Shown one piece after another: positions 3,001-52,369 of a stretch of 64,000 nt of DNA. How positions within the stretch are numbered: position 1 is the stretch's first letter; each line of letters starts with the position of its first letter. Under the pieces are notes generated by a model. The model ran no database searches. It saw only the letters and a list, made by a program, of their open reading frames with translations, and had not been told where the DNA came from. Origin of the DNA: Verrucomicrobiota bacterium. Its GTDB lineage: Bacteria; Verrucomicrobiota; Verrucomicrobiia; Verrucomicrobiales; V1-33. The stretch covers positions 31,558 through 95,557 of the forward strand of contig QQNF01000007.1 of the NCBI GenBank assembly GCA_003402705.1, given 5' to 3'. A program made the translations under genes and the position numbers.

Positions 3001-6000
3001 AGGAGGTCGGCGGAGGGGATGCCGGCTGCGCGGATGCCGTCGGCGATGGTGGTGCGTGCGGGTTCCTCGCCCTCGTTGGCGAGGGAGGCGAGGTGGACGA
3101 GGGAGAAGGAACGGGATTCGTCGACCTTGGCGGGGAGATTGGGGGCATTTCCGCCGGTGGAGGCGCGGTTGACGCGGTTGTTTTTGTACTGGTAGGCCTG
3201 ATAGGAGGAATACGTCAGGGAGATGATGTCGAGGACATCGGCGGGGACGTAGGGGCGAAGGGCCTCGGTGTAGTCGCGGGCGGAGCCGGGCTGGACCGAG
3301 ACGGGCGCGCCCGGAGCGTTGCGGTTAGGGAGTTCGTCGCGGATGCCGAGCGCGTGGAGGAAGGCGTTGGTGGCGGGGGCTGGCTGATCGCTTTCTTCGA
3401 GGGCGCAGCCGTAGAGGTACCAGAGACGGTAGTCGCCGGGGAAGTCCTTCATGCGCGGGGCGAGGAAGGCGGCGGCCTGTTTCCAGAGATCCTGGTCGCA
3501 GAGGGCGTCGGCGAGGGACTCGAGCTGACGGGCGTCGAGGGCGACGGAGGAGGCGAGCTGTTCGAGGGCGGCCATGCCTTTGGCTTCATCGCCGCTGGCG
3601 AAGTGGACGCGGGCGATGCGCTGACGGACCTTGCCTGATTTGTCGAGAGGTTCGGCTTCGCGGAGCGTTTCGAGGGCGCGTTTGAAGTCGCCTTCGGCTT
3701 CGGCGATGCGGGCGATTTCGAGGAGGATGTCGAGGTCACCGGCTTTGAGGCGGGCGGCTTCGGCGAGCGCGGCGGCGCGGGCCTCGTAGTTTTCCGAGAC
3801 CCGGTGGATTTCTGCGAGGGCGAGGAGCGGGAGGAGGGACGTGCGGTTGGCTTTGCGGCGTTCTTCGAATTGTTCGACGAGTTCCGAGAGCTTGTCGGCG
3901 TCGCGGGCGTTTTCGGCTAGGGCACCAGCCCAGCGGATTTTGGCGCTGAGGTCTTTGCCTTCTTCGTAGAGGACTGTGTAGAGACGGGCGGCGTCGGCGA
4001 ATTTGCCATCGTCGCGATAGGCTTCGGCGAGCATGGCTTTGAGGTCCTCGTTGTCGTCGAATTCCTGGGACGCCTGGCGGAGTGCGCGGAGGGCTTCCTT
4101 GTTATTGCCTTGAGCGAGCTGGAGGGAGGCTTCCTTCTGCCATGGGAGATTGCTGCCTGGGGAGAGCTTTTTCCATTCGGGGATCCATGTCAGGGCGTCG
4201 GAGAGTTTACCGGCGCGTTCGAAGAGTTCGACGAGACGCTGGACGTGGACGCTTTTGCGGCCTGTTGGGGATTCGACGAGCCGTTTCATGGAAGCGGCGG
4301 CGCCGGCGATGTCACCGCGCTGGGACTGGAGACGGACGAGGATGGCGATGGCGAGTTCCGGGGCGGCGGCTTCGACTTCCTTGAGGGCGGCTTCCGAGCC
4401 TTTGGGGTCGCCGGTGCGGTCGAGGAGTTCGGCTAGGAGGCACTTGTCCTGAGGGGATTCGGCGTTGCCTTTGAGCTGAGCGAGGAGGGCTTCTGTCTGA
4501 CCGGCTTTTTCGGAGAGCCGGAGGAGGATGGTCATGGTGGCCTCGAGATCGACTGGGTCGGAGGCGAGGGAGACGAGCGTGCGGGCCCATGGGACGGCCT
4601 GGGCTTCGCGGTCGGTGCGTTCTGCCAGTTCGCAGAGCTGGAGGAGGTAGAGAGGGTCCTTGGAGAATTCGGGGAGCCGTTCGGTGAGGAGGTCTGCGGC
4701 GAAGGCGAGTTCGTCGCGAGCGGCGGCGGAGCGGGCGACGCCCATGACGCGGGATTTGTCAGGAGAGGCGGCGAGTTTGCGCCAGACGGCGAAGGCCTCG
4801 TCTTTGGCACCGCTCTTGTGGAGAACGGTGGCGAGCGCGTCCTGAACGCCCTCGCTGTCGGGGAAGGTGGCGGCTGCTTTCTTGTAGAGATCGAGGGATT
4901 CCGCGGGGAGTTGATAGCGTTCGAGGAGGCCGGCGGCGCGGAGGTGAGCGGCTTCGGACTTGTCGGATTTGGCGAGGAAGTCGGCGACGGCGGCGGATGC
5001 TTCGGGTTTTTTGCCGGCGGCGGCGCGGAGGTCGGCGAGTTTGACGATGAGTTCGAGGTCCTGGGGGTAGAGCCGGATGAGTTCGAGCATCTGGGTGGCT
5101 GCGTCGTCGGGGCGCTGGGCCTGGATGAGGAGATCGACGAAGGATTCGCGGACCTCGCGATTGCCTGGGGTTTTGGCGAGGATGTCGGAGTATTCGCGGA
5201 TGGCTTCGTCGGTGGCGGCGGTTTCGACGAGGAGGGCGGCGAAGCGGCGGCGGAGGGACGTGCGCTGGGGGAATTTGGCGACGAGGGCGCGGTATTGTTC
5301 CTTGAGGCCGTCGACGGCGTCGTCGCGGCGGAAGGTTTGCTCGAGCTGGGCGAGGATTTCCTTTTCGAGCCATGAGTCTGCGCCGGTGTCGTCGAGACAG
5401 GCGAGGTAGACGGCGACGGCTTTTTCGCGAGCACCGGCGCGCTGGTGGATATCGCCGATGCGGAGACGGCGCTGGACCTTTTTGTAAGGGTCGGCGGTGC
5501 GAGCGACGAGGGCTTCAGCGGTGGCGAGGGCTTCGTTGGTGAGGCCTTCGGAGATCTGGAGTTCGACGAGGTCTTCCTGGAGGTCTTCGTCGTCAGGGTT
5601 GGCGGCGACGAGTTCCTGCCAGACCTTGACGGCGTCGGGGACGCGGCCGGCGCGGGCGAGGAGACGGCCTTTGAGTTGCTTGAGTTTGGTGAGGGTGGCG
5701 GCGGGAGGGTTGGCGGCGGCGGCCTTGTCGAGGGAAGCGAGGGCGCTGTCGAAATCGAGCGTGCGGGATTCGGCGAGGGCCTGCTGGAGCCATGCCTCGG
5801 CGTTTTTGGGGTCGGCGGCGGTGGCGGTGCGGAAGGCGGCGATGGCTTTTTCGTTATCGCCCTGGCGGAGGAAGTGATAGGCGAGGAGGAGACGGGCGGC
5901 TGGCGGGGCGTCGGCGGCGTCGGCGCGTTCTTTGAGCCATGATTCGAGGTCGTCGAGCGTGCGGGATTCGAGCCATGCGGTGTAGAAGCGGTCGAAGACG

Positions 6001-6143
6001 GCACCTGGGACGGGGCGTTTGAGGAGACTGTCGTAGTAGCGCTGGGCTTTTTCGCTGACAGGTTCTTCGGCGTGGAGCGCGGGGAGGAGAGCGGCGAAGA
6101 GGACGGCTGGGAGGAGCTGGAGAGAGGGGAGGAAGCGCTTCAT
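1..6143 (-). CDS. Very large secreted TPR/helical-repeat protein; the 3' end runs off the window (>2047 codons)
   Basis: Absent from the ORF track because it has no stop inside the window. Reverse-complement reading from the ATG at 6143-6141 gives MKRFLPSLQLLPAVLFAALLPALHAEEPVSEKAQRYYDSLL (signal peptide). By my manual translation it stays open to position 1, with repeated A/L/E/K-rich TPR-like helices. All listed ORFs within 348-6004 have shadow-frame composition. Confidence 0.7.
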   Translation of the reverse strand, partial: MKRFLPSLQLLPAVLFAALLPALHAEEPVSEKAQRYYDSLLKRPVPGAVFDRFYTAWLESRTLDDLESWLKERADAADAPPAARLLLAYHFLRQGDNEKAIAAFRTATAADPKNAEAWLQQALAESRTLDFDSALASLDKAAAANPPAATLTKLKQLKGRLLARAGRVPDAVKVWQELVAANPDDEDLQEDLVELQISEGLTNEALATAEALVARTADPYKKVQRRLRIGDIHQRAGAREKAVAVYLACLDDTGADSWLEKEILAQLEQTFRRDDAVDGLKEQYRALVAKFPQRTSLRRRFAALLVETAATDEAIREYSDILAKTPGNREVRESFVDLLIQAQRPDDAATQMLELIRLYPQDLELIVKLADLRAAAGKKPEASAAVADFLAKSDKSEAAHLRAAGLLERYQLPAESLDLYKKAAATFPDSEGVQDALATVLHKSGAKDEAFAVWRKLAASPDKSRVMGVARSAAARDELAFAADLLTERLPEFSKDPLYLLQLCELAERTDREAQAVPWARTLVSLASDPVDLEATMTILLRLSEKAGQTEALLAQLKGNAESPQDKCLLAELLDRTGDPKGSEAALKEVEAAAPELAIAILVRLQSQRGDIAGAAASMKRLVESPTGRKSVHVQRLVELFERAGKLSDALTWIPEWKKLSPGSNLPWQKEASLQLAQGNNKEALRALRQASQEFDDNEDLKAMLAEAYRDDGKFADAARLYTVLYEEGKDLSAKIRWAGALAENARDADKLSELVEQFEERRKANRTSLLPLLALAEIHRVSENYEARAAALAEAARLKAGDLDILLEIARIAEAEGDFKRALETLREAEPLDKSGKVRQRIARVHFASGDEAKGMAALEQLASSVALDARQLESLADALCDQDLWKQAAAFLAPRMKDFPGDYRLWYLYGCALEESDQPAPATNAFLHALGIRDELPNRNAPGAPVSVQPGSARDYTEALRPYVPADVLDIISLTYSSYQAYQYKNNRVNRASTGGNAPNLPAKVDESRSFSLVHLASLANEGEEPARTTIADGIRAAGIPSADLLLELIQGTRVDRQINFAERLEKDPTNETLLALAALWGNQQNSDPAVDLRVYSSLKEKRRELAWIAALRLIDDEDEAASKAWQESAAALEQLEVPPPILLNNLSGLLQNAQNPDAIPEANRASLNRLRTKLPGWYRKSDPKGYQAPYIFIQLAGMLSREEDLQPLVALIEDEVAAHAADPQRSPKNFLSQMGGRPPLIEALTFPPQRLPDFSPLALMLLNARAENYYGNRMEWDQDKLKAALPAIKDPILKVLLTIRADDPDALTALLKSLTDPADAPLATLLLAAGHAAEENQWEAAGALLRRAQPMPMAREFRRLVDGSLVSWSIAASQAAAASADKDSPLVAAGREALLRLRREASNAGQRQELADAMKELGMDNESERMAASAQSGPQGAPSSGVSLGAMGSVSLRMINSGGRTSRIDQLVAKGKREDALRDLTRELKSMSKAWLAGNDSLRYQAREWVEAVNRHGFAQALTAALNPGDNPSPDATAQFAAALDIMGEPRKALALYRKALEKKPKDAGLRKCLIMSALADDPEKAVEILKTEAPDQLLALSPNLVNVISTIETHAARFALLEVVLDALSKSDAPALAKLNLDSLYQVFDYAMQQGWANRDQLDIGSLYQQTPTSYNGSDGEEADNRRKDLQAQRLDLHNRFARRFMEIASTARRAFSRFAAVALKDGNESANDELDKLAAAVLELERASRKSNVSIGSQIYNMGSRGDAIPLRQPGPEEWLLERAWKQNLPAKITDDLLPRLRAARATTARDLEEMMPLYFCTADEFPAKSLEFAAKRQKSVQPGQPQLHWQTVFHVADLRKLDADFGPLIVASLKNSNGNYYGGQEFWHIMQFAKRLIERKGPDAVDAFFREIAVIFLGPAEKRQEHFARHYNPRSYSSGSPNAMIMQWLNLMRTAWQSPELVFPAAECYIRDFQRPARDVATDDQFFNYGNQLTDSAFFRQPAEKVVTFLRRTPIVRPLETFLPCAGPVNSQRCLALDVLVGLSQ

Positions 6144-6356
6144 TTCGGCAAAGGGGGAAAGTGGAAAGGAGAGAGAGTGGGAAGGACGATTGGAAAGCGG
6201 ACGAAAGGCGAGGTACTGTCGGACAAAACGATGGGAAGTCGAGCGCGAGGAATGGTGGATCGCGCGGGTGGGAAACCCCTTGCTTCCAAGCGGTTTCGAG
6301 GTCCTCATGGGAGGCTTACCGGGGAGGTTGAGCCGACCCTTGATTTCCCCTGATCC

Positions 6357-7376
6357 ATGAGTCATTCACAGCCAGTCACCGTTCCATGTGTCATGAAAAT
6401 TGCGGGCACCGGCAGTTACGTGCCGGAGCGCGTGCTGACGAATGCGGATCTTGAGAAGCTGGTGGAGACGACGGATGAGTGGATCACGTCGCGGACGGGG
6501 ATCAAGGAGCGGCGGATTGCGGCGGAGGGTGAGGCGACGGGTGATCTGGCGACGAAGGCGGCGTTGCGGGCGATGGAGGCGGCCGGGGTGACGGCTGAGG
6601 AGATTGATCTGATTATTGTGGGGACGATTTCGCCGGACACATTTTTCCCGAGCACGGCGTGTCATGTGCAGCGGAATCTGGGGGCGGTGAAGGCGGTGGC
6701 ATTTGATGTGAGTGCGGCGTGCGCGGGGTTTCTGTATGCGATGCAGATTGCGCGGCAGTTCATCAATGGCGGGACGCGGAAGACGGCGCTGATCATCGGG
6801 GCGGACAAGTTGAGCGGGATGGTGAACTGGCAGGATCGGAATACGTGTGTGTTGTTCGGTGATGGGGCCGGGGCAGCGATTCTGACGGCGAAAGAGCCGA
6901 ATGACGGGGATCCGAGCGGGGTGTTGTCGTCGGTGATGGCGAGTGACGGGCGACTGACGGATATCTTGTCGGTGCCGGGTGGTGGATCGGCGATCCCGAT
7001 CACGCCGGAGAATGCGGACCAGCGGTTGAATACGATTCACATGCAGGGGCGCGAAGTGTTCAAGGCGGCGGTGAAGTACACGCTGGAGGCGTGCGAGCAG
7101 GTGATTGAGCGGGCTGGGTTGAAGGCTGAGGACATTGCGCTGATCATTCCGCATCAGGCGAATGTGCGGATTGTGGATGCGATCCGGGAGCGGTTGGGAT
7201 TGCCGCCGGAGCGGGCGTTTTTGAATCTGCAAAAGTATGGGAACACGTCCGGGGCGGCGGTGGCGATTGCGCTGGATGAGGCGGTGCGGAGCGGGGTGGT
7301 GAAGAAGGGGGACAATATTCTGCTGGTGGCGTTCGGGGCTGGGTTTGCGTGGTCGGCGTCGGTGATCCGGTGGTGA
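6357..7376 (+). CDS. fabH: 3-oxoacyl-ACP synthase III
   Basis: Full-length FabH-like sequence: GTGSYVPERVLTNADLEKLVETTDEWITSRTGIKERR, active-site context DVSAACAGFLYA, C-terminal GNTSGAAVAIALDEA. The start may be the internal Met at 6393 (MKIAGTG). Confidence 0.9.
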   Translation: MSHSQPVTVPCVMKIAGTGSYVPERVLTNADLEKLVETTDEWITSRTGIKERRIAAEGEATGDLATKAALRAMEAAGVTAEEIDLIIVGTISPDTFFPSTACHVQRNLGAVKAVAFDVSAACAGFLYAMQIARQFINGGTRKTALIIGADKLSGMVNWQDRNTCVLFGDGAGAAILTAKEPNDGDPSGVLSSVMASDGRLTDILSVPGGGSAIPITPENADQRLNTIHMQGREVFKAAVKYTLEACEQVIERAGLKAEDIALIIPHQANVRIVDAIRERLGLPPERAFLNLQKYGNTSGAAVAIALDEAVRSGVVKKGDNILLVAFGAGFAWSASVIRW

Positions 7377-41905: not shown

Positions 41906-44900
41906 ATGATGCCCACGCCTCCGCGCCTCATTCTCATCCTCGTCTCCGCCGCCGCCGCCACGGCCGCAGAACCCGCTCCGGACTTCGCCAAGGACGTCCG
42001 CCCCATCCTTTCCAACCACTGCTTCAAATGCCACGGCCCCGACGAGGAAGGCCGCAAAGGCGAGCTCCGGCTCGACGTCCGTTCCGCCGCCCTCGAACCC
42101 GCCAAAAGCGGCGCCCGCGCCATCGTCCCCTCCAACCCCGACGCCAGCGAGGCCATCACCCGCATCCTCTCCGACGACCCGGACGAGGTCATGCCGCCAC
42201 CCGCCACCAAACACCCGCTCACCGCTCCCCAGAAAGAAACCCTCCGCCGCTGGATCGCCTCCGGTGCCGCCTACTCGGAACACTGGGCCTTCTCCGCCCC
42301 TCAGCGTCCCACCCCGCCCGCCTCTCTCCCCAACCCCATCGACGCCTTCGTCCTCGCCCGCCTCAAAGCCGAGAATCTCTCCCCTTCTCCGCCCGCCGAC
42401 CCCGCCACGCTCCTCCGCAGGGTCTCCCTCGACCTCATCGGTCTCCCACCATCCCCGGAAGAAACCGCCGCCTTCGTCGAGTCCGGCGGCAAGGACTACG
42501 AGGCCGCCGTCGACCGTCTCCTCGCCTCACCTCAATATGGCGAACGCTGGGCCCGCAAATGGCTCGACCTCGCCCGCTACGCCGACACCAACGGCTACGA
42601 AAAAGACCGCGGCCGCACCATCTGGCCATACCGCGACTGGGTCGTCCGTTCCCTCAACACCGACATGCCGTTCGATCAATTCACCGTCGAACAACTTGCC
42701 GGCGATCTCCTCCCCAACCCCACCCCGGACCAGATCGTCGCCACCGGGTTCCACCGGAATACCATGCTCAATGAGGAAGGCGGCATCGACCCGCTCGAAT
42801 TCCGCTTCCGCGCCATGACCGACCGCGTCTCCACCACCGGAGCCGCATGGCTAGGCCTGACTCTTCAGTGCGCCCAGTGCCACACTCACAAATACGACCC
42901 CATCCAGCACCGCGAATACTATCAGATCATGGCGTTCCTCAACAACACCGAGGAACCCGACTACCTCATCCGCCCGCCAGACGCTGAATCCGAACTCACC
43001 AAACGCGCCGCCCGCCGCGCCGCGCTCATCGCCGCCCTCCCCGACCAGTGGCCCGCCGGCAACGTCTCATGGAAAGCCTCTCCTATCAATTCCTTCACCG
43101 GCACCGGTGAAACCGGCACCATCCAGCCCGACGGCAGTGTCCTCTTCAAATCCCCAGGCCCGGACCGCTCGGACGTCACCTTCGAAGTGACCACCGGCAC
43201 CGAACCATTCTCCCACCTGCGCCTCGAAACGCTCGCCGATCCTTCCCTCCCCGCCAACGGCCCCGGCCGCACCCCGCACGGCAACTTCGTCCTCAGCGAA
43301 CTCACCCTCACCATCGACGGCAAACCGGTCGCCTTCTCCGCCGCCGAAGCCTCCGCTCAGCAAAAGGGCTATCCCATTTCCCACGCCATCGACGGCGATT
43401 TCAACAACGGCTGGGCCGTCCACGAAGAAGGCAAAACCCTCAATCAGCACCAGTGGGCCTCCTTCCGTCTCGCCTCGCCCATCGCCAGCCCCTCCGGCAA
43501 AGTCACGGTACGTCTCAGTTCCAATCACGGCGGCCATCACTCCCCCGGCCGCATCCGCTTCAGCACCGGCACTTCCACCCCCGGAGCCAGCCCGCGCGAC
43601 GCCGCAGAAAAGGCCTTCCTCTCATGGCTCGGCAACACGCGCCCGCGCACCACACCATGGTCACCCGCAAAACCAGTTAGCGCCACTTCCAATTCCCCGC
43701 TCCTCACCATCCTCCCGGACCAATCCATCCTCGCCAGCGGCGACATCACCAAGGCCGACACCTACGAGGTCACGGTCTCCTCGCCTCTCAAAAACATCAC
43801 CGCCGTCAGGCTCGAAGCTCTCCCCGACGACTCCCTCCCTAGCAACGGCCCGGGCATGGCCTACTACGAGGGCCCCAAGGGCGACTTCTTCATGGGCGAA
43901 TTCCGACTCATGCTAGGCGGTCAGCCTGTCCGCTTCGCCTCCGCCTCCGAGAGCTACGGCAAAAACAACTTCGGCGGTTCCGCCTCCGCCGCCCTCGCCA
44001 TCGACGGCGACGCCCAGACCGGATGGAGCACCGCCGGAGCAGAGGGCCGCCCTCACGAAGCCGTCTTCGTCCTCGAAAAACCCATCACCCCCACCGACGG
44101 CCAACTCTCTCTTCAACTCGTCTTCGGTCGCCACTACGCCTGCTCGCTCGGTCGCTTCCGCATCTCCTTCACTTCCGCAGAAGGTGCCACCGCCTCCCAG
44201 CTCGACGGCGAAACTCAGGCGCTCCTCAGCATCCCGCACCCGGAACTCTCCGACGCCAACCGCGCCAAGCTCCGCCAAGCCTTCCTCCTCAATGCCCCGG
44301 AACTCGCCGCCGCGCGCAACGAAATCAACGCCCTCGCCAATCTCCCCGCATGGCAACCCACGCTCGCCATGCGCGAACGCCCTGCCTCCAACCCGCGCCC
44401 GACGTTCATCCACCACCGCGGCGAATACACTCAGCCGAAAGACAAGGTCGAGGCAGGCGTCCCTGCCTTCCTCCCCGCTCTCCCGCCCGACGCCCCCGCT
44501 AACCGTCTCTCCTTCGCCCGCTGGCTCGTCAGCCGCAATCACCCGCTAACCGCCCGCGTCGTCGTCAACCGCCACTGGGCTTCCTTCTTCGGTCGCGGTC
44601 TCGTCAAAACCGAAGAAGACTTTGGCTACCAAGGCGACCTCCCCACCCACCCCGACCTCCTCGACTGGCTCGCCGTCGAATTCATGGAATCCGGCTGGTC
44701 TCTCAAAAAACTCCACCGGCTCATCGCCACCAGCGCCACCTACCGCCAATCCTCACGCGTCACCGGCCCCGCCGCCTCGCGCGACGCCGAAAACCTTCTC
44801 CTCTGGCGCGGCCCTCGCCACCGTCTCGAAGCCGAACAAATCCGCGACAGCGCCCTCAAGGTCACCGGGCTCCTCTCCCTCAAAGCCGGCGGCCCCGGCG

Positions 44901-45412
44901 TCTTCCCACCCCAACCCGCAGGCGTCACCACCGAAGGCACCTACGGTGCCATGTCATGGGCCACCAGCTCCGGCGAAGACCGCTACCGCCGCAGTCTCTA
45001 CACGTTCGTCAAACGCACCGCCCCCTTCGCCATGGGCGCCACCTTCGACGCCCCCAGCGGCGAAGCCTGCGTCGCCCGACGCGATGTCTCCAACACTCCC
45101 CTCCAGTCCCTCACGCTTCTCAACGACGTCATGTTCATGGAAGCCGCTCAGGCCATGGCCGCCAACGTCGCCCCAACCCGCGAATCCCCCGACGCCAAAC
45201 TCCACAAGGTTTTCCTCCGAATCTTCTCACGCCCACCCACCACCGAGGAACTCACCGCCGCCTCACAATTCCTCGCCACCCAGCACGAACGCCTCACCTC
45301 CGGCAAACTCGACCCCGCCCAACTCTCGGGCACCAACGACCCCGCCCGCGCCGCATGGACCCTCCTCATCCGCGCCCTCCTCAACACCGACGAGTTCGTC
45401 ACCAATCACTGA
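41906..45412 (+). CDS. PSCyt1/PSCyt2(DUF1549)/PSD1(DUF1553) family protein (planctomycete-type cytochrome-c-like)
   Basis: CFKCHGPDEEGRKGELRLD (CxxCH), RRVSLDLIGLPPSPEE, CAQCHTHKYDPI, C-terminal RRSLYTFVKRTAPFAMGATFDAP. Confidence 0.85.
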   Translation: MMPTPPRLILILVSAAAATAAEPAPDFAKDVRPILSNHCFKCHGPDEEGRKGELRLDVRSAALEPAKSGARAIVPSNPDASEAITRILSDDPDEVMPPPATKHPLTAPQKETLRRWIASGAAYSEHWAFSAPQRPTPPASLPNPIDAFVLARLKAENLSPSPPADPATLLRRVSLDLIGLPPSPEETAAFVESGGKDYEAAVDRLLASPQYGERWARKWLDLARYADTNGYEKDRGRTIWPYRDWVVRSLNTDMPFDQFTVEQLAGDLLPNPTPDQIVATGFHRNTMLNEEGGIDPLEFRFRAMTDRVSTTGAAWLGLTLQCAQCHTHKYDPIQHREYYQIMAFLNNTEEPDYLIRPPDAESELTKRAARRAALIAALPDQWPAGNVSWKASPINSFTGTGETGTIQPDGSVLFKSPGPDRSDVTFEVTTGTEPFSHLRLETLADPSLPANGPGRTPHGNFVLSELTLTIDGKPVAFSAAEASAQQKGYPISHAIDGDFNNGWAVHEEGKTLNQHQWASFRLASPIASPSGKVTVRLSSNHGGHHSPGRIRFSTGTSTPGASPRDAAEKAFLSWLGNTRPRTTPWSPAKPVSATSNSPLLTILPDQSILASGDITKADTYEVTVSSPLKNITAVRLEALPDDSLPSNGPGMAYYEGPKGDFFMGEFRLMLGGQPVRFASASESYGKNNFGGSASAALAIDGDAQTGWSTAGAEGRPHEAVFVLEKPITPTDGQLSLQLVFGRHYACSLGRFRISFTSAEGATASQLDGETQALLSIPHPELSDANRAKLRQAFLLNAPELAAARNEINALANLPAWQPTLAMRERPASNPRPTFIHHRGEYTQPKDKVEAGVPAFLPALPPDAPANRLSFARWLVSRNHPLTARVVVNRHWASFFGRGLVKTEEDFGYQGDLPTHPDLLDWLAVEFMESGWSLKKLHRLIATSATYRQSSRVTGPAASRDAENLLLWRGPRHRLEAEQIRDSALKVTGLLSLKAGGPGVFPPQPAGVTTEGTYGAMSWATSSGEDRYRRSLYTFVKRTAPFAMGATFDAPSGEACVARRDVSNTPLQSLTLLNDVMFMEAAQAMAANVAPTRESPDAKLHKVFLRIFSRPPTTEELTAASQFLATQHERLTSGKLDPAQLSGTNDPARAAWTLLIRALLNTDEFVTNH

Positions 45413-45455
45413 TATCCCCACCGCACCGCTGAACCGTCGGAATCGCCCCTCTTTG

Positions 45456-45474
45456 CAAGGGCGTCTCGCCCTTG
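45456..45474 (+). terminator. 8-bp GC hairpin after the PSCyt/DUF1553 gene
   Basis: caagggcg-tct-cgcccttg, followed by only a weak T tract. Confidence 0.3.
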
Positions 45475-45548
45475 TCTCCACCCAAGCCAGCCACCCGCCG
45501 ATCCCACCTGTTGCCATCCAGCGAAAGACTGAGCACAGTCTACCCATA

Positions 45549-46931
45549 ATGCTCACCTCCCTGCACATCAAGAACTTCAAAGCTTGGAAGGACACCGGCG
45601 AGGTCCCGCTGGCACCGCTGACGGTGATTTTTGGAGCCAACAGTGCCGGGAAGTCCAGCCTCGGGCATCTCCTCCTTGCTCTGAAACAAACCGCCCTCTC
45701 CTCCGACCGCAGAAGGGCTCTGCACTTGGGCGATCAAAACACGCTCATTGACTTGGGAACGTTTGAAGACTGTTTGCACGCCCATGATCTCAGCCAGGCG
45801 CTGGCATTTGACCTGAAATGGGCTCTGCCTGAAGATATTGTGGTGAAGAATCCACTGACGGGTGACAAATTCAACGGCAGCAAGATGTCTCTGTCTGTGA
45901 AGCTATCCGCCAATAAATCAGGGCAGCCCGAAGCCACGGCCATTCGCTACGTACTGGGCGAAGACGGCGAATCCTCATTGGATACTGAGTTTTCCCGTGA
46001 CAGCAAAGGATCCTACAGCCTGAAATCGTCCAGATACGGATTTACCCGGACCCAAGGGCGCATCTGGCCCCTTGATGCTCCCGAAAAGTTTTACCGAATT
46101 TCCGATACCACCCGGGCGAGATTTCAGAATGCCGGCTTTCTCGCCGATTTCGCGCTGTCGACGGAGCAAATGCTCACCGGGCTCTATTTTCTGGGACCGC
46201 TCCGAGATCACCCCCGACGAACCTATCAGTGGTCAGGTGACACCCCTGAAGACGTTGGTTCACGCGGCGAATTCACCATCCCGGCCATCCTTGCGGCCGA
46301 TGCCCAGAACCGAAAACTGAACCGCGGAGTGAAGCAACGCCTTCAATCATTCCCGGAATTCATTGCAAGATGGCTGAAGGACCTTGGAATCATTGACAGC
46401 TTTAAGGTTAGGGCGGTCGCGGCTGGCCGCAAGGAGTACGAGGTCCTCATCAAGACAGGCCCCAAGTCGCCTGAGGTCAAGATTACCGACGTCGGCTTTG
46501 GGGTTTCCCAGGTTCTCCCGGCGCTGGTGCTTCCGTTCTATTGCCCCGCAAACTCCGTCGTCTGGATGGAACAGCCGGAAATCCATCTCCATCCCCAGGT
46601 GCAGGCTCAACTGGCCGATGTGTTCATCTCAGCAGTGCAGGCCCGTGAAGGGAATTTTGCCCGCAATGTTCAATTGATAGTTGAAAGCCATTCCGAGCAT
46701 TTCCTGAACAGGCTTCAGAGAAGGATTGCGGAAGGAAGCATCAAAACGGAGGAGGTGGCCATCTATTTTTGCAGGAAAACGGAGGGCGGCACGGAATTGG
46801 AGCCGCTAACGGTCAATATGTTCGGTGATATCGAGAACTGGCCGGAAAACTTCTTTGGAGATGAGATGGCTGATTTGACGGCGCGCACCGTGGCCGCCGC
46901 CGAGCAACGCAAAAGCCTTTCAGCCAAATGA
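45549..46931 (+). CDS. ABC/SMC-type AAA ATPase (AAA_15/AAA_21-like with a DUF3696-like C-terminal tail)
   Basis: Starts MLTSLHIKNFKAWKD. Walker A GANSAGKSS, Walker B/D-loop region VWMEQPEIHLHP, H-loop IVESHSEHF, tail DIENWPENFFGDE. The first 927 nt of the 769-aa track ORF (44622-45548) are an out-of-frame overlap with the upstream gene. Confidence 0.8.
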   Translation: MLTSLHIKNFKAWKDTGEVPLAPLTVIFGANSAGKSSLGHLLLALKQTALSSDRRRALHLGDQNTLIDLGTFEDCLHAHDLSQALAFDLKWALPEDIVVKNPLTGDKFNGSKMSLSVKLSANKSGQPEATAIRYVLGEDGESSLDTEFSRDSKGSYSLKSSRYGFTRTQGRIWPLDAPEKFYRISDTTRARFQNAGFLADFALSTEQMLTGLYFLGPLRDHPRRTYQWSGDTPEDVGSRGEFTIPAILAADAQNRKLNRGVKQRLQSFPEFIARWLKDLGIIDSFKVRAVAAGRKEYEVLIKTGPKSPEVKITDVGFGVSQVLPALVLPFYCPANSVVWMEQPEIHLHPQVQAQLADVFISAVQAREGNFARNVQLIVESHSEHFLNRLQRRIAEGSIKTEEVAIYFCRKTEGGTELEPLTVNMFGDIENWPENFFGDEMADLTARTVAAAEQRKSLSAK

Positions 46932-47434
46932 CCAGCATCGTCGACACCAATGTTATCCTGGTAGCGAACGGGCAGCATTCTGACGTGGACCCGGAATGCG
47001 TTGCTGAATGCGCGCTTCGGCTGCAGAACCTGATGACCAATGGCAGGATCGCATTGGACGATGCCTATGAGATCCTGCTCGAATATCAGAACAAAACCCT
47101 ACCAAAATCCGGAAACAGGCCCGGCGACGCCTTCGTGAAGTGGGCCCTCCAAAACAACCGGACCGTCTCCAAGTGTGACTTGGTGCCACTGGAAGTCCAC
47201 CCGGAGCGTGGTTATGTCAGTTTTCCCGATGATCCACAGCTGAAGGCCTTCGATCCCCCGGACAGGAAGTTCGTCGCGGTCTCGGCTGCGCACCCGGATC
47301 ATCCGCCGATCCTGCAGGCGGCAGACTCCAAATGGCTGGCATGGGAACCATCGTTGAAACAACATGGCGTCGAGGTTCAGTTTCTTTGCCCTGACGACAT
47401 TAGACGCTTCCGCGACAACAAAGCAGGCAAATGA
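46928..47434 (+). CDS. PIN-domain nuclease
   Basis: N-terminal IVDTNVILVA, with later acidic positions in PPDRKFVAVSAA and QAADSKW, matching the PIN four-acidic-residue pattern. ATGA overlap with the ATPase stop. Confidence 0.6.
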   Translation: MTSIVDTNVILVANGQHSDVDPECVAECALRLQNLMTNGRIALDDAYEILLEYQNKTLPKSGNRPGDAFVKWALQNNRTVSKCDLVPLEVHPERGYVSFPDDPQLKAFDPPDRKFVAVSAAHPDHPPILQAADSKWLAWEPSLKQHGVEVQFLCPDDIRRFRDNKAGK

Positions 47435-48165
47435 ATGAGTTCTACCGCTTCCCTCACACGCCGCACCTCGCATGGCTGGGTGAAGGAAGCCCGAGGGACG
47501 ACAAGGTGCTTTCCTCCCCCGAAAGGGAAGAACTTCTGAATGGTGACGTCTTGGTCGAGGAGAAACTCGATGGCGCAAATCTTGGGATCACCATCAATTC
47601 CCTGGGCTCGATCTGCGTTCAAAACCGCGGCCAATATCTTGAGCCTCCGTTCTCCGGACAGTTCGCCCGTCTGTCTTCGTGGCTGCCGCCTCGGGAAGAA
47701 ATAATGACGCGCGTACTCGGACCCAACCTCATCCTGTTTGGGGAATGGTGCGCCGCCCGCCACTCTCTCGACTACTTCACCCTGCCGGACTGGTTTCTCG
47801 CCTTCGATGTCTACGACAGGTCTGCCGGCCGATTCTGGAGCACCGCCAGACGGAATGAATTGGTCTCCAGACTTTCCATTCCGTTTGTCCCTGCCGTTTT
47901 CACTGGGAAGACGAGCATGCAGGAATTGCAGGCACTGCTTCTTCACACCAACAGCCAGTTCCGTCCGGGGCCACTTGAGGGTTTGGTCATCCGAAAGGAG
48001 AACGCCGATTGGCTGGAGGGCCGCGCCAAGTTGGTTCAGCCAAACTTCACCCAAGCCATCACTCAGCATTGGAGCCGCCGGGGCTTTGTGTGGAATCGGC
48101 TATCCACCCCTGAGCCGGTTTGTGGAGGCTCGCCCGCAGGCTCCGAGGCCGGAAAGTCCTCCTGA
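47431..48165 (+). CDS. ATP-dependent RNA ligase family protein (nucleotidyltransferase superfamily)
   Basis: Motif I EEKLDGANLG (KxDG), motif III LILFGEW, IIIa FLAFDVYD, IV EGLVIRKE, V GRAKLVQPNF. ATGA overlap with the PIN stop. Confidence 0.75.
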   Translation: MNEFYRFPHTPHLAWLGEGSPRDDKVLSSPEREELLNGDVLVEEKLDGANLGITINSLGSICVQNRGQYLEPPFSGQFARLSSWLPPREEIMTRVLGPNLILFGEWCAARHSLDYFTLPDWFLAFDVYDRSAGRFWSTARRNELVSRLSIPFVPAVFTGKTSMQELQALLLHTNSQFRPGPLEGLVIRKENADWLEGRAKLVQPNFTQAITQHWSRRGFVWNRLSTPEPVCGGSPAGSEAGKSS

Positions 48166-49106
48166 CGCCTCCGTCTGAAGCACAGCAGCAACCCAGCGAT
48201 GGTGAGCGATGCAGTATGCGGCTCGGGGATGACGCCATGGATCCATCCCTGCAGGGACGATGTCCGCATCAGGTATCCAGTGTCTCCGTACCCGCTGCCG
48301 TAAAGGTTTCCGGGTTCAGTGGGATTCACGCCCCATGAGACGATGCCAACCAGTTCCGGGCCGTTGCCGAAGTCTGCAAAGGCCGGGCCGCCGCTGTCCC
48401 CCGGTGCGGAGGTTCCTTCCACGCCTGTAGGCAAGCTGGAACTCCCACTGCCCGCGATGCTGCTGTTTCCAGCCACCGGCACTCCGAACGCATCGAAGGC
48501 TGCCACCACCGCGAGGCTGTTTCTGGCAGTCTGGCCGTTGTCGAAGTCGTACACGAGGAGACCACCAGGGCCGTCGGGACCGTTCAGCGAGATCACGCGA
48601 TCGATGGTGTTCGTGAAGCCGAAGACCGTTGCACTGCCGTTGAGATCCGAGACTCCGCCTGCGGCCCCCGCCAGTCCGGTTCCGAGAACGGTGACGGTGA
48701 GGCCGTACTCAGCGTTTCCGGCATACAGCCTTGTGGAACCAAATCCTGCCACGGGCTGCGCCAGCCTCACCAAGTCCGCGTCCCAGCCCTGCTGCGCCGA
48801 AAAGCTGCCGTCCCAGCCCGGGTGCTGAACCCACGACTCAGCCTCATGCCGCTGGCCGTTGATGGAGAAGGAAAGGCGTGTCACCGCGTCGGCATCCCAG
48901 TTGTGCGCCGCCGTCAACACCCAGCGGTCACTGAGGAGCACGCCGGTGCCGCGATAGCTGCCGCTGGTTTCCACGATCTCCAACGTGCCCACTCCCCCGA
49001 ATGTCTGCCCGAGCAGTCGCGATGCCTCGAGATCCGGCAAACCGATAACCACGGCACCGGCCGTCGATGGCCAGAGGAGCGCCAGAAAGGCAGCGAAAGT
49101 CACCAT
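48063..49106 (-). CDS. Secreted trypsin-like (S1) serine protease with a PEP-CTERM anchor
   Basis: Internal ATG at 49106 gives the signal peptide MVTFAAFLALLWPSTAGA. Catalytic-triad contexts WVLTAAHNW and GDSGGPAF. C-terminal VIPEPHTASLTIAGLLLCFRRRR. It is in the same frame as the RT, with no stop between them. Confidence 0.7.
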   Translation of the reverse strand: MVTFAAFLALLWPSTAGAVVIGLPDLEASRLLGQTFGGVGTLEIVETSGSYRGTGVLLSDRWVLTAAHNWDADAVTRLSFSINGQRHEAESWVQHPGWDGSFSAQQGWDADLVRLAQPVAGFGSTRLYAGNAEYGLTVTVLGTGLAGAAGGVSDLNGSATVFGFTNTIDRVISLNGPDGPGGLLVYDFDNGQTARNSLAVVAAFDAFGVPVAGNSSIAGSGSSSLPTGVEGTSAPGDSGGPAFADFGNGPELVGIVSWGVNPTEPGNLYGSGYGDTGYLMRTSSLQGWIHGVIPEPHTASLTIAGLLLCFRRRRQEDFPASEPAGEPPQTGSGVDSRFHTKPRRLQC

Positions 49107-50393
49107 CCACCCGCCCGGAGCCTTCGACCCCGGATCCACGGGACTACCAGCGCCGGACGGGCGCGTTGTGGTTTTGTCGCCTCCGGAAACCGGAGACGAG
49201 CGGGACGGCGGCCGGTTCAGTCCCATGCTCATCGCGGGAGCATCCACCCCCGTTGGTCTGAGCTGCGAGCCAGACGGAACCCGATGTTGTTGTTCGTGTT
49301 CGCCGGGGTGTTGTTGTTGCGGTTCGCGGCGCGGCAGTTGTTCGCGTTGTTGTTCCAACTGCCGCCCCGGTTCACCCGGTTCGTGCCCGATGGCCGCCGA
49401 CCGGAGTTTCTCCATCACGCCCCGCCGGAAGCCGTGCGAGCGCACCGGCAGGACGAAGGCCGTGAACGCGGTGAGACGCTCTTGCAGGGCCTTTGCGGAA
49501 ATCATGTCGTCCTCGTACAGGGCATCCAGTAGACGCAGCTTGCGCCAATAGCGGACCTTGCTGCGGCGGTTGAGTTCCGCATGGTTGGGAAAAATCCGGT
49601 AGCCGAGGAAATCCATGCCGCGCCCGGTGGGTTGCGGGCATGGCGGGTGCTTGAGCGCGAGACCCAGTTCCTGTTCCACGAAGGTTTGGATTTCCTTGCC
49701 CAGCATGGTCATTGCCGCCTTGTCGTCTCCCCAGCAGACAAAGTCGTCCATGTAACGGCAATACGCCTTCACCACCGGGTGTTTCTGGCAAAATCGATCC
49801 AGCGGACCAAGGTAGAAATTCGCCAGATGCTGGCTGGTCAGGCTGCCGATGGGCAGGCCCTTGCCCTCCTCCGGACGATGACCACGCAGGATTTTCTCCA
49901 GCCAATGAAGAATCTCCGGGTCTTTGAACAACCGGTGCAGCCTCGAAATCAGGCGTTCCTGCGGGATCGACTCGAAATATTTCCGGATGTCCAGCTTGAG
50001 GTGCCACGCCCGGCCACGCGCCGCCTTTTGCGCGGCATCAATGGCTCTGAGCCGTCCCTTGCCCTTGCGGCAGGCATAACTGTGAAAAACCGCCTGCCGC
50101 TCCAGCACCGGTTCACACAAATTCATCAGCGCATGATGGAAGACCCGTTCCACAAAACGAGCCGCGTGGATCGTCCGCTCCTTGGGATCATACACCATGA
50201 ATACGTTGAACTGCCCAGTCTCGAAGCGGCGCCCGATCACTTCCTCGCGCAGGCGATCCAGGCTCCCGTCCAGATCTTCTGCGAAGCGACGCACCTCCTG
50301 CTTGTGCCGCTTGCCGCGTGCCGCCTGATGGAACGCCCGCAGCAGATTCCCCCGCTCGATCACGGCCGGCCACAGGTTGCCGATGCGTTTCAT
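49107..50393 (-). CDS. DGR reverse transcriptase (the reading frame continues without a stop to 48063)
   Basis: [30 protein letters not shown]-terminus, [25 protein letters not shown] (the DGR-type I/LGxxxSQ motif), and the YMDD box in [11 protein letters not shown]. The lower coordinate is arbitrary: it is the codon before the protease Met. Confidence 0.85.
49258..49391 (-). repeat. DGR template repeat (TR)
   Basis: 134-bp match to 51032-51165. In the target frame it reads [41 protein letters not shown] (15 AAC codons). Confidence 0.9.
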
Positions 50394-50857
50394 TTCGCCG
50401 CCTCCTTGCCCGTCAGGCTGGCGAGAAACGCGGCACCGTATTTCTCGATGCGCGCGGCACCCACGCCCGGAATAGATCCCATCGCCGTAAGCGAATCCAC
50501 CTTCCCCGTCACCATTGCTGCGAGTTGCTCGTTGGTGAAAATCGAATAAGCCGGAATAGCCGCTTTCTCCGAGACGGTCTTCCGCAAATCCCGCAGACGC
50601 GCGAATACGGCAAAATCTGCCTCAGTGAGCAGCTCCTTGTAGTCGATCTTGGGTCCGCTGGTGCCGCTCCGCCCTTTGTCCATGACGCCTACAGAGCCAT
50701 CCAGGAACTCGATGCAAAACGCCCAGAACGAGTCCTCACCATTGGCGACGAACTCTTTGCGCACGGACGCAATGCGGCCGCCCCGGAGCAGCTTGTTCAG
50801 CTCCTCCTTGGCATTGCCCTGCCCGTTCGCCGGGATCTGGATGAACTCAAATGGCAT
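50390..50857 (-). CDS. DGR accessory protein with a C-terminal HRDC domain
   Basis: DFAVFARLRDLRKTVSEKAAIPAYSIFTNEQLAAMVTGKVDSLTAMGSIPGVGAARIEKYGAAFLASL fits the HRDC helix pattern. The stop overlaps the RT start (ATGA). Confidence 0.7.
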   Translation of the reverse strand: MPFEFIQIPANGQGNAKEELNKLLRGGRIASVRKEFVANGEDSFWAFCIEFLDGSVGVMDKGRSGTSGPKIDYKELLTEADFAVFARLRDLRKTVSEKAAIPAYSIFTNEQLAAMVTGKVDSLTAMGSIPGVGAARIEKYGAAFLASLTGKEAAK

Positions 50858-51023: not shown

Positions 51024-52229
51024 CTAGGGGACTGAACTGCGAGCCAGACGGAACCCGAAGTTGATGTACGTGAACGCCGGGGAGTCGTAGGAGCGGATCG
51101 CGGCGCGGCAGTTGCCCGCGTAGTTGAACCAACTGCCGCCCCGGAGCACCCGGTCCGTGCCCGAGGCAGCACCCCGTGGATCGATAGCTCCGCTCACATA
51201 CGTCGATGCTCCATACCAATCCCAGCACCACTCCCAGACATTCCCCGCCATGTCATACAAGCCATACCCGTTGGCCGCAAAACTTCCCACGGGTGATGTG
51301 TAAGGGAATTCTCCCACCCTGTAGCTGGGGTGGTAACCGTTCACCGCCCCACTTGAATCGTAGCTCCAGCCGCTATAAGCACGATAGTTGGCCTGACTAT
51401 GGCTGATCGTGTCCAAGCCCGAGGGGAATCGTTTCCCGCTCACTCCGCCGCGCGCTGCTTTTTCCCACTCGGCCTCCGTCGGCAGCCGATAGCCATTCGC
51501 ACTCCAGTTCGCCGTCGGCACCGAAGTCCCCGTCCTCATCACAGCGGCGCTAACCGTGTAAACCGGAGTCAGCCCGTCTCTCTGGCTGCGCGCATTGCAC
51601 CACTTCACCATGTCAAACCAACGGATCTCCTGCACCGGGTGATTGCTCGCCTTGCCGCCTCCTTCCGCGAGATCCGTGTAGCCATTGGCGGCACCCCAAG
51701 TCCGCACCTCATCCCACAGGGCTTTCGTCACTTCGTATTGCCCCATGAAAAAGGCGCTCACCGTCACCGTCACAGGTGGAGCATTGCTATCCGTGTCGCC
51801 GCTGGTGCGTCCCATCATGAAGGCGCCCGCGGGGATGAACGAAAAGCCTTCGGGGACTCCTGTCGGTGTATCGAGCGCAAGCCGATAGAACCGCCGGGGC
51901 ACTCCGGCGGCGTGAGGGGTGGTGATCACAAGGTTGTTCCCGTCCCCAATGACTACGCTGCCAACATCCTGCCACGTTCCACCCTCCAACGTGTCTGCAT
52001 ACTGGAGCAGGTAGCTGCGGCCCACGACCGATGGCTGGACCGTGAAATTCAGGTTCCCACCAACAATTTCAAGTTTCGGCGCAACCAACTCCCCCGGCGC
52101 GATCGGCTCCGCACCCGTCGCAAAAACCGTCAGCGCCGCAAAAAGGGAAACCACCAGCGGACCGAGCCGGCGACGACCAGGCTCTAGGAGGCTTCTGAGT
52201 TGGGCGTAAGGTTTCGGATGCGCTCTCAT
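51024..52229 (-). CDS. DGR variable protein: signal peptide + beta-sandwich region + FGE-sulfatase/C-type-lectin-fold domain
   Basis: FIPAGAFMMGR, YRLPTEAEWEKAARGG, DMAGNVWEWCWDWY, and the C-terminal variable segment RVLRGGSWFNYAGNCRAAIRSYDSPAFTYINFGFRLARS. ATG at 52229; the track TTG start is 52250. Confidence 0.9.
   Translation of the reverse strand: MRAHPKPYAQLRSLLEPGRRRLGPLVVSLFAALTVFATGAEPIAPGELVAPKLEIVGGNLNFTVQPSVVGRSYLLQYADTLEGGTWQDVGSVVIGDGNNLVITTPHAAGVPRRFYRLALDTPTGVPEGFSFIPAGAFMMGRTSGDTDSNAPPVTVTVSAFFMGQYEVTKALWDEVRTWGAANGYTDLAEGGGKASNHPVQEIRWFDMVKWCNARSQRDGLTPVYTVSAAVMRTGTSVPTANWSANGYRLPTEAEWEKAARGGVSGKRFPSGLDTISHSQANYRAYSGWSYDSSGAVNGYHPSYRVGEFPYTSPVGSFAANGYGLYDMAGNVWEWCWDWYGASTYVSGAIDPRGAASGTDRVLRGGSWFNYAGNCRAAIRSYDSPAFTYINFGFRLARSSVP
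51032..51165 (-). repeat. DGR variable repeat (VR) at the 3' end of the target gene
   Basis: Differs from the TR at 19 positions, all of them adenines in the TR coding strand (plus-strand T in the TR versus A/C/G in the VR). One further C/T mismatch sits at the 3' boundary. Confidence 0.9.
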
Positions 52230-52369
52230 GGGTCGGGGGTTCGCAGTCAAATAGCAGGAAGTGAGGAAACCGTTATCGGAAATTTCCCATTTCTTCGTGC
52301 CTTTGGCAGGCGGATTTCGAAAATCCCTTCCCTGAAGCTCTCGTCAATGCAGCCGATTGCCCGCCCCCC

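Follow-up and report, generated by a model that had tools for sequence, protein, structure and literature searches.

The window analysed here, a 64,000-nucleotide stretch of contig QQNF01000007.1 from a Verrucomicrobiota bacterium, contains a cassette of three plus-strand open reading frames (ORFs) that encode an ABC-type ATPase, a small PIN-like protein and a predicted ATP-dependent RNA ligase (Table 1). The consecutive pairs share a 4-base ATGA stop/start overlap, and both the coordinates and the overlaps were as claimed in an earlier note made from the DNA sequence. The mechanical ORF of gene 1 extends back to position 44622, and use of the ATG at 45549 gives a 460-residue protein that aligns end to end with its homologues. 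The upstream neighbour of the cassette is a PSCyt/DUF1553 gene ending at 45412, and the downstream neighbour is a trypsin-like protease gene.

Table 1. Coordinates of the cassette, of the adjacent diversity-generating retroelement (DGR) and of features at related loci
Feature	Sequence	Coordinates	Strand	Remarks
Upstream intergenic region	window	45413..45548	+	136 bp, presumed cassette promoter; native GC skew stops here
Gene 1, ABC-type ATPase with C-terminal DUF3696 tail	window	45549..46931	+	460 aa; Pfam AAA_15/AAA_21/DUF3696, PADLOC HEC-03B
Gene 2, PIN-like protein	window	46928..47434	+	168 aa; PADLOC HEC-03A, predicted PIN fold
Gene 3, predicted ATP-dependent RNA ligase, nucleotidyltransferase domain only	window	47431..48165	+	244 aa; Pfam PF09414
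DGR reverse-transcriptase frame (RVT_1, YMDD)	window	48063-50393	-	776-aa ORF
DGR template repeat (TR)	window	49255-49390	-	136 nt
DGR HRDC-domain accessory gene	window	50390-50857
DGR FGE-sulfatase-fold target gene	window	51024-52250		VR at 3' end
DGR variable repeat (VR)	window	51029-51164	-	136 nt, at 3' end of target gene
ATPase-less PIN and ligase pair	L069	6001-7230		example; same arrangement at L038, L041-L043, L045-L047, L049, L050, L053, L055, L057-L060, L063, L065, L067, L068, L070-L072, L075, L077-L079
Decayed copy	L066 (Aminicenantes)	4605-6504
Methylase relic	L019	4419-4568
Methylase relic	L082 (Aeromonas plasmid)	6510-6605
Methylase relic	L101, L102, L106, others
Other cargo in methylase/HNH frame	L167	4724-7632		DUF2513 and Schlafen/AlbA_2-HATPase protein
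Other cargo in methylase/HNH frame	L091	5586-9504		893-aa helicase-like and 409-aa protein

Gene 1 matched the Pfam families AAA_15 (4e-24), AAA_21 (1e-14) and DUF3696 (1.6e-10), and contains the motifs GANSAGKSS (Walker A), EQPEIHLHP, ESHSEHF and DIENWPENFFGDE. Among the PADLOC models, HEC-03B (PDLC04148) was matched with E = 1.2e-135 over residues 1-455 of 460, followed by NsnB as the second-best match (5e-58), and the matches to other ATPases were weak (AriA 1e-25, GajA about 1e-11). The protein is 40% identical to the tested HEC-03 ATPase of Pseudomonas cichorii. In an alignment of 49 sequences the Walker A (GxNSxGKSS), the Walker B (hhhhEQPE) and the H-loop were all invariant. The Walker B reads VWMEQPE at window positions 46560-46583 (residues 338-345), and its E341 and Q342, shared by all 49 sequences including the tested HEC-03 ATPase, stand where ABC ATPases have D-E, with glutamine at the position of the catalytic glutamate. 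The ligase-less A. soli-type sister ATPases, which are only about 35% identical, have a canonical EEPE Walker B. With its EQPE form the ATPase may be an ATP-binding switch that hydrolyses slowly, and gene 1 is presumed to act as the sensor and gatekeeper of the cassette.

Gene 2 matched PADLOC HEC-03A (PDLC04147) over residues 1-157 with E = 3.4e-20, and is 29% identical (E = 6e-16) to WP_025259137, the tested HEC-03 PIN protein. The AlphaFold2 model (predicted local distance difference test score, pLDDT, 93.8) showed no domain beyond PIN, and its top fold matches in the Protein Data Bank (PDB) were all PIN domains, namely 3ix7, PAE0151, SMG6, a Mycobacterium tuberculosis VapC and HARP RNase P. 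The motifs IVDTNVILVA, DRKFVAVSAA and AADSKW are present, and D6, E52, D112 and D133, together with D109, were invariant in 26 close members of the family. The D-E-D-D acidic set was also kept in nine divergent members, where the first position is D or E; this position 6 is D in the window clade and E in the tested HEC-03 PIN. Searches with gene 2 returned no match in PHROGs or among the PDB sequences, and no homologue was found in 50,697 phage records. Directly upstream, no VapB-type antitoxin gene was found, the place being taken by the 460-residue ATPase with no small ORF in between. By its conserved residues and its model, gene 2 encodes a protein of PIN fold whose acidic active site is complete, and which is presumed to be the RNase effector.

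Gene 3 matched the Pfam family RNA_ligase (PF09414) with 5e-29 and 102 bits, compared to a cut-off of 27 bits. It contains the motifs KLDG, FGEW, FDVYD, EGLVIRKE and AKLV, and the nucleotidyltransferase (NTase) motifs I (K45), III (E105), IIIa (F125/D126), IV (E183/G184) and V (K200) were invariant in 27 sequences. The AlphaFold2 model had a pLDDT of 80, with low confidence for the C-terminal 35 residues, and its fold matched Pab1020, Naegleria NgrRnl, Trypanosoma brucei REL1, MthRnl and T4 Rnl2 at 6e-8 to 1e-6 (top PDB entries 2vug at 5.9e-8, 5cou at 9.9e-8, 1xdn, 5d1o and 2hvr), with DNA ligase folds ranked below the RNA ligases at about 1e-4. With 225-244 residues, the family consists of a bare NTase domain lacking an OB, C-terminal or DNA-binding domain. 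Since gene 3 has neither the C-domain of Rnl2, the dimerisation/C-domain of Rnl3 nor the N-terminal OB domain of Rnl5, it fits no named Rnl class. Its homologues are listed as 'ATP-dependent RNA circularization protein' (JGI) or, in some sources, as 'DNA ligase', and gene 3 had no match in PADLOC. The last 100 bp or so of the gene (48063-48165) are shared with the convergent protease gene, likewise at the 3' end of the latter. The window ligase is 10-15 residues longer than most homologues (244 compared to 225-233 residues), and the overlap therefore falls in a non-conserved tail. On these grounds gene 3 is predicted to be a catalytically intact, minimal ATP-dependent RNA ligase. The domain assignments of the earlier note were thereby supported, by Pfam for the ATPase and the ligase and by PADLOC HEC-03A and the predicted fold for the PIN protein, and the motifs it had quoted for the three genes were all recovered at invariant columns of their families.

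HEC-03 (Hma-embedded candidate 03) is a pair of an ABC ATPase and a VapC-like PIN protein from P. cichorii, which in Escherichia coli led to fewer plaques for several phages, required both genes and was toxic on induction; the paper contains no mention of a ligase (Payne et al. 2024, bioRxiv 10.1101/2024.01.29.577857), and the system is modelled in PADLOC-DB v2. The window cassette shares with it the gene order, in which a DUF3696-tailed ATPase precedes a small PIN protein and the two genes are co-oriented and overlap, as well as the EQPE Walker B and the embedding of relatives in restriction-modification (RM) systems. Judging from homology, the ATPase and PIN pair is related to the validated HEC-03 defence pair and is a known kind of system. 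The difference lies in the third gene, as the tested system comprises two genes and no ligase, whereas the window copy is free-standing and carries a translationally coupled ligase. The earlier description of the locus as an uncharacterised system thus fails for the ATPase and PIN, two of its three genes, which PADLOC identifies as HEC-03, and the ground for refutation named in the earlier note, a match to a system with a name, holds by half.

The linkage of the ligase to this pair was assessed in two scans anchored on the window PIN clade and a sister clade. In the genome scan, a PIN alignment searched against one genome per species gave 177 confirmed loci, 80 of which were kept. For the metagenome scan more distant PINs served as anchors, and it yielded 80 loci, with 78 informative for the trio. 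A ligase homologue (48-78% identical) started 0-50 bp after the PIN gene in 75 of the 80 genome loci, and a ligase lay directly downstream of PIN in 73 of the 80 metagenome loci, with ATPase, PIN and ligase all present in 72 of the 78 informative ones. Taken over both scans, the three-gene form was found at 148 of 160 loci in more than 10 phyla; the 75 genome loci with a ligase came from Verrucomicrobiota, Planctomycetota, Myxococcota, Nitrospirota, Desulfobacterota and Alpha-, Beta- and Gammaproteobacteria, as well as Gemmatimonadota, Bacteroidota, Acidobacteriota, Spirochaetota and Chloroflexota. The same picture emerged from look-ups that started from the ligase, with a DUF3696 ATPase and a Pfam-less protein of 175-178 residues upstream in all three cases. 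Plasmids carry the trio as well: it was annotated on conjugative Aeromonas plasmids, one copy being WP_182936410-12, with AbiEii, Hok/Gef and a GTPase-associated system as neighbours, on plasmids of Azotobacter and Tistrella, and on one of Rhodococcus, where the PIN is only 32% identical and the ligase is present. In many phyla, then, this PIN clade is almost always accompanied by the ligase, and the test proposed in the earlier note, whether the trio is a conserved neighbourhood in unrelated genomes, had a positive outcome. Around the ATPase-containing loci no other gene was conserved, and no end-healing kinase or phosphatase gene was conserved beside the trio; since nothing else is retained there, the trio can be regarded as a self-contained cassette.

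The exceptions among the genome loci were instructive as to which partner the ligase belongs to. One locus (L051) ends with its contig, two (L016 and L048) are true two-gene forms of ATPase and PIN, and one (L066) looks like a decaying copy, in which the ATPase is broken into three ORFs, the ligase is absent and the PIN gene is intact. About 24 Aquabacterium/Burkholderiales loci, on the other hand, had PIN and ligase with all catalytic residues kept and no ATPase. These occupy one syntenic chromosomal site beside genes for a cyanophycin synthetase, an ExeA-like protein, an M20 amidohydrolase and an ABC transporter, and the pair seems to have descended vertically throughout the genus, an uncommon pattern among defence modules. 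The divergent ExeA-like gene was considered as a replacement for the missing ATPase and rejected, as it belongs to the conserved housekeeping synteny and has no link to the pair. Forms without a ligase comprised the tested HEC-03, the A. soli-type sister clade and the two two-gene loci, and apart from the decayed copy no PIN gene was seen with neither an intact ATPase nor a ligase. The simplest reading is that the PIN protein is the dangerous component and that either partner keeps it tolerable. As either one suffices, the ligase would be a partner of the PIN protein and not of the ATPase.

The surroundings of the related loci were in agreement with the defence context proposed for the trio in the earlier note. 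At 44 trio loci, the immediate neighbours included methylases (Eco57I, MmeI and N6), type I S subunits, Mrr and ResIII, and likewise other AAA_15/21/23 ATPases, JetA (DUF3375), DUF4276 and HipA. Many trios sit between an MmeI/Eco57I-like (type IIG) methylase of 1200-1480 residues and an HNH_2 gene of roughly 255 residues: among the metagenome loci a methylase was present in 34, an HNH gene in 28 and both in 22, and among the genome loci the corresponding numbers were 7 for the methylase and 3 for HNH. Such RM embedding is the 'guilt by embedding' signature by which HEC-03 was found. Some free-standing trios retain a relic of the methylase C-terminus, 30-50 codons long, just upstream of the ATPase, and these stubs beside free-standing copies suggest that the cassette has been lifted out of methylase/HNH frames. 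Near the window cassette, no methylase relic, HNH or RM gene was found.

The A. soli plasmid had raised the possibility that HNH takes the place of the ligase as third gene. This was rejected, because in many trios HNH_2 comes after the ligase as well and because inserted genes separate HNH_2 from PIN at locus L091, so that HNH belongs to the enclosing methylase/HNH frame; overall, it flanks 31 of the 160 related loci. Two such frames hold other cargo (L167 and L091), which represents possible further embedded defence candidates.

The composition of the window cassette sets it apart from the host genes, and more sharply than had been claimed before. The three genes have third-position C and G fractions (C3 and G3) of 0.35-0.40 and 0.29-0.30, respectively, and a GC content of 0.55-0.585, compared to a C3 of 0.69 for a native plus-strand gene and a G3 of 0.61-0.63 for native minus-strand genes. 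At about 45.5 kb the GC skew jumps to near 0 from a level of about -0.4, and native values are reached again only at about 52.4 kb, giving a skew-free block that comprises the trio, the trypsin-like protease gene and the DGR. Along this block the GC content is 0.53-0.58 in the trio and 0.60-0.66 in the protease and DGR part, and because of the lower GC of the trio the two parts were probably acquired separately. No sigma-70 promoter consensus was found upstream of the cassette, terminator-like matches were at chance level, and no direct repeats marking an insertion site were found around it. A tRNA search gave no hits, and Rfam returned one sub-threshold, spurious match only. The trio is regarded as a horizontally acquired, free-standing copy of a HEC-03-family anti-phage cassette.

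Several other known systems resemble parts of the cassette. PARIS (AriA/AriB), Septu (PtuA/PtuB), Gabija and P2 OLD likewise combine an ABC ATPase sensor of the AAA_15/AAA_21 type with a metal-dependent nuclease effector, and PARIS, Septu and OLD cut tRNA into products with ligatable 5'-phosphate and 3'-hydroxyl ends. Their effectors are however Toprim or HNH nucleases instead of PIN, none of them encodes its own ligase, and repair is there a counter-measure of the phage; no Toprim or HNH nuclease gene was found in the window cassette. Menshen (NsnABC) is similar in that the NsnB ATPase has a DUF3696 tail, and the paired tails are predicted to clamp the PIN-like domain of NsnC (PMC12065111). 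In contrast to the window PIN, which keeps its acidic residues and stands alone, the NsnC PIN is catalytically dead and followed by a C-terminal toxin, and no NsnA (ParB/DUF262) gene lies beside the cassette, the flanking genes being those for PSCyt/DUF1553 and the trypsin-like protease. A parallel to the ligase is offered by T4 Pnkp/Rnl1 acting against PrrC, by the bacterial Pnkp-Hen1 and Pnkp1-Rnl-Hen1, and by RtcB, all RNA repair enzymes that reverse nuclease damage to essential RNA. These act on 2',3'-cyclic phosphate and 5'-hydroxyl breaks, depend on enzymes for end healing and do not share a locus with the nuclease, being in most cases encoded by its opponent, whereas here nuclease and ligase share one operon that contains no healing enzyme.

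Among the papers searched, no description of the trio was found, and none contained both DUF3696 and RNA ligase. The earlier note knew of no experimentally characterised system with this trio. The underlying idea has apparently been proposed before: a one-sentence summary in PMC5499597 (Matelska et al. 2017) credits Burroughs & Aravind 2016 (NAR 44:8525) with operons of PIN, 'ATP-grasp' RNA ligase, ATPase and HNH, in which the ligase neutralises the nucleases. This is probably an earlier computational description of the same operon. As summarised there, the gene set of PIN, ligase and ATPase is the same, HNH likewise flanks many of the relatives found here, and the logic of neutralisation is shared. 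The PIN of that system is filed under PIN_3/COG1569, whereas the window PIN clade gave only a sub-threshold PIN_3 signal (E = 0.11, in 3 of 26 gene 2 relatives, with no match for the window protein itself), and the window copy lacks HNH. That proposal was a purely computational one.

PIN nucleases are metal-dependent. The effector of the cassette should hence leave 5'-phosphate and 3'-hydroxyl ends, which are the products of two-metal-ion nuclease cleavage (PMC12409363), and an ATP-dependent ligase could rejoin these directly, with no need of a kinase or phosphatase. For the OLD nuclease, which is coupled to an ABC ATPase, a single nick in tRNA was 'seamlessly repaired' by T4 Rnl1 or Rnl2 with no end healing (PMC12445682). 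That such ends are a direct ligase substrate would account for the presence of a ligase in the cassette and for the lack of a kinase and a phosphatase. In the proposed mechanism, the ATPase of a resting cell would hold the PIN protein through its DUF3696 tails, as predicted for NsnB-NsnC of Menshen and shown for AriA-AriB of PARIS, until a phage cue leads to release or activation of the PIN protein. By analogy with these systems, the ATPase probably sequesters or gates the nuclease in this manner. The freed PIN protein would stop translation by cutting an essential RNA, which, as with VapC-type PINs, is probably tRNA or rRNA. The ligase would then serve as an enzymatic antidote that clears leaky cleavage before infection and allows recovery afterwards, giving a reversible growth arrest instead of suicide. 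This role as antidote and reset arm for the PIN cuts is the favoured one, since PIN-type ends can be ligated without end healing, and we consider it about equally apt to prove right or wrong. The wider proposal, held more tentatively and at somewhat short of even confidence, is that the cassette is a self-resetting module and the first defence system with its own RNA-repair enzyme, the Aquabacterium pair being a toxin-antitoxin system with a catalytic repair antitoxin.

Several observations speak against the reading of the cassette as a HEC-03-type defence system reset by its ligase. Identity to the tested proteins is only 40% for the ATPase and 29% for the PIN protein of the window, gene 2 has no Pfam or NCBIfam match, with no Pfam PIN model reaching significance, and Foldseek supports the PIN fold only moderately (E 0.01-0.2, TM 0.4-0.56, probability 0.82-0.98). 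The E-Q pair in the Walker B may make ATP hydrolysis by gene 1 atypical. Moreover, the ligase is not essential to restrain the PIN protein when the ATPase is present, since the A. soli clade, the two two-gene loci and the tested HEC-03 itself work or persist without it. Among the alternatives, the cassette might mainly serve addiction or the stabilisation of plasmids and islands, or else housekeeping RNA processing, with PIN and ligase acting as toxin and enzymatic antitoxin or as processors of a specific cellular RNA. The occurrence of the trio on conjugative plasmids beside Hok/Gef and AbiEii modules fits such a role, as does the vertical inheritance of PIN and ligase at a single core-genome site across Aquabacterium, and in archaea PIN_5 co-occurs with TIGR01209 RNA ligases and tRNA enzymes (PMC5499597). 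It is nevertheless unlikely, given that the homologous ATPase and PIN pair confers phage defence, that the trio repeatedly lies inside RM-type frames adjoining other defence genes, and that its distribution is patchy across phyla with no conserved neighbours.

The ligase could also be part of the attack, if the PIN protein excised a short RNA segment and the ligase joined the remaining ends or circularised the fragments, thereby locking in the defect beyond repair by the phage. When tRNA is cut twice, T4 ligases have been found to yield a circular fragment together with an abnormal tRNA of reduced length (PMC12445682), the closest solved relatives of gene 3 include the RNA-circularising Rnl3 enzymes Pab1020 and MthRnl, and the JGI name of its homologues refers to circularization. 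An RNA-destroying pair is however hard to square with Aquabacterium, which keeps PIN and ligase at a conserved site without the ATPase gate, and ligase-less versions still defend, which makes an offensive ligase quite improbable. A DNA-directed function, in which PIN would be a FEN/flap-type nuclease and the ligase would seal DNA or RNA-DNA nicks in a nick-and-repair restriction together with the methylase and HNH, draws on the frequent position of the cassette between these two genes, on the name 'DNA ligase' of some homologues and on the DNA flap nucleases that PMC5499597 includes in the PIN-like superfamily. Against this, RNA ligase folds outrank DNA ligase folds for gene 3 by the E values given above and no OB or DNA-binding domain is present, the PIN folds resemble VapC, SMG6 and RNase P types rather than FEN, and the HEC-03 PIN is classed as VapC-like (bioRxiv 10.1101/2024.01.29.577857), so that this function must be considered very unlikely. 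Finally, the absence of a ligase model in PADLOC and the two-gene nature of the tested HEC-03 could be taken to mean that the ligase is an unrelated passenger beside the pair in this genome. With the same position and the same overlaps or spacing conserved at 148 of the 160 loci, in more than 10 phyla and on several plasmids, and with all catalytic motifs invariant, that reading is effectively refuted.

Many defence systems built on an ABC ATPase, such as PARIS, Septu, OLD and retron Eco7, are now known to kill through tRNA cleavage, to which RNA ligases have been regarded as the response of the phage. In the present cassette it is the host that joins a ligase to the nuclease, and it is the three-gene form, not the tested two-gene HEC-03, that dominates the recovered loci. 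The ATPase and PIN family was already known as HEC-03, and the idea of a repair arm has probably been voiced before; what is new is the prevalence of the ligase-bearing form, the way in which the ligase tracks the PIN protein, and a chemistry that would permit direct resealing. If the ligase does reverse the damage, the cassette would provide a concrete case of abortive infection that is reversible instead of suicidal, and a new toxin-antitoxin logic in which the antitoxin is an enzymatic repair activity instead of a binding partner. For annotation, PADLOC labels the locus HEC-03 and misses the third gene, and the PIN protein is without a Pfam or NCBIfam model.

The DGR beside the cassette is complete and genuine, with the TR/VR pair and the RVT_1, HRDC and FGE-sulfatase genes all found, as the earlier note had indicated. 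Mismatches between TR and VR occur only at TR adenines (AAC codons). The reverse-transcriptase frame has no stop and reads through the TR into the trypsin-like protease, which has a signal-peptide-like start and a PEP-CTERM-like tail; this ORF may be a true fusion or may contain an internal protease start. Across the window, the GC skew is unusually strong (|0.3-0.45|) and changes sign near 29-30 kb, where the cumulative skew peaks, consistent with a replication terminus or origin. To the right of this switch, third codon positions follow the DNA strand and not the gene, with C3 on plus-strand genes and G3 on minus-strand genes.

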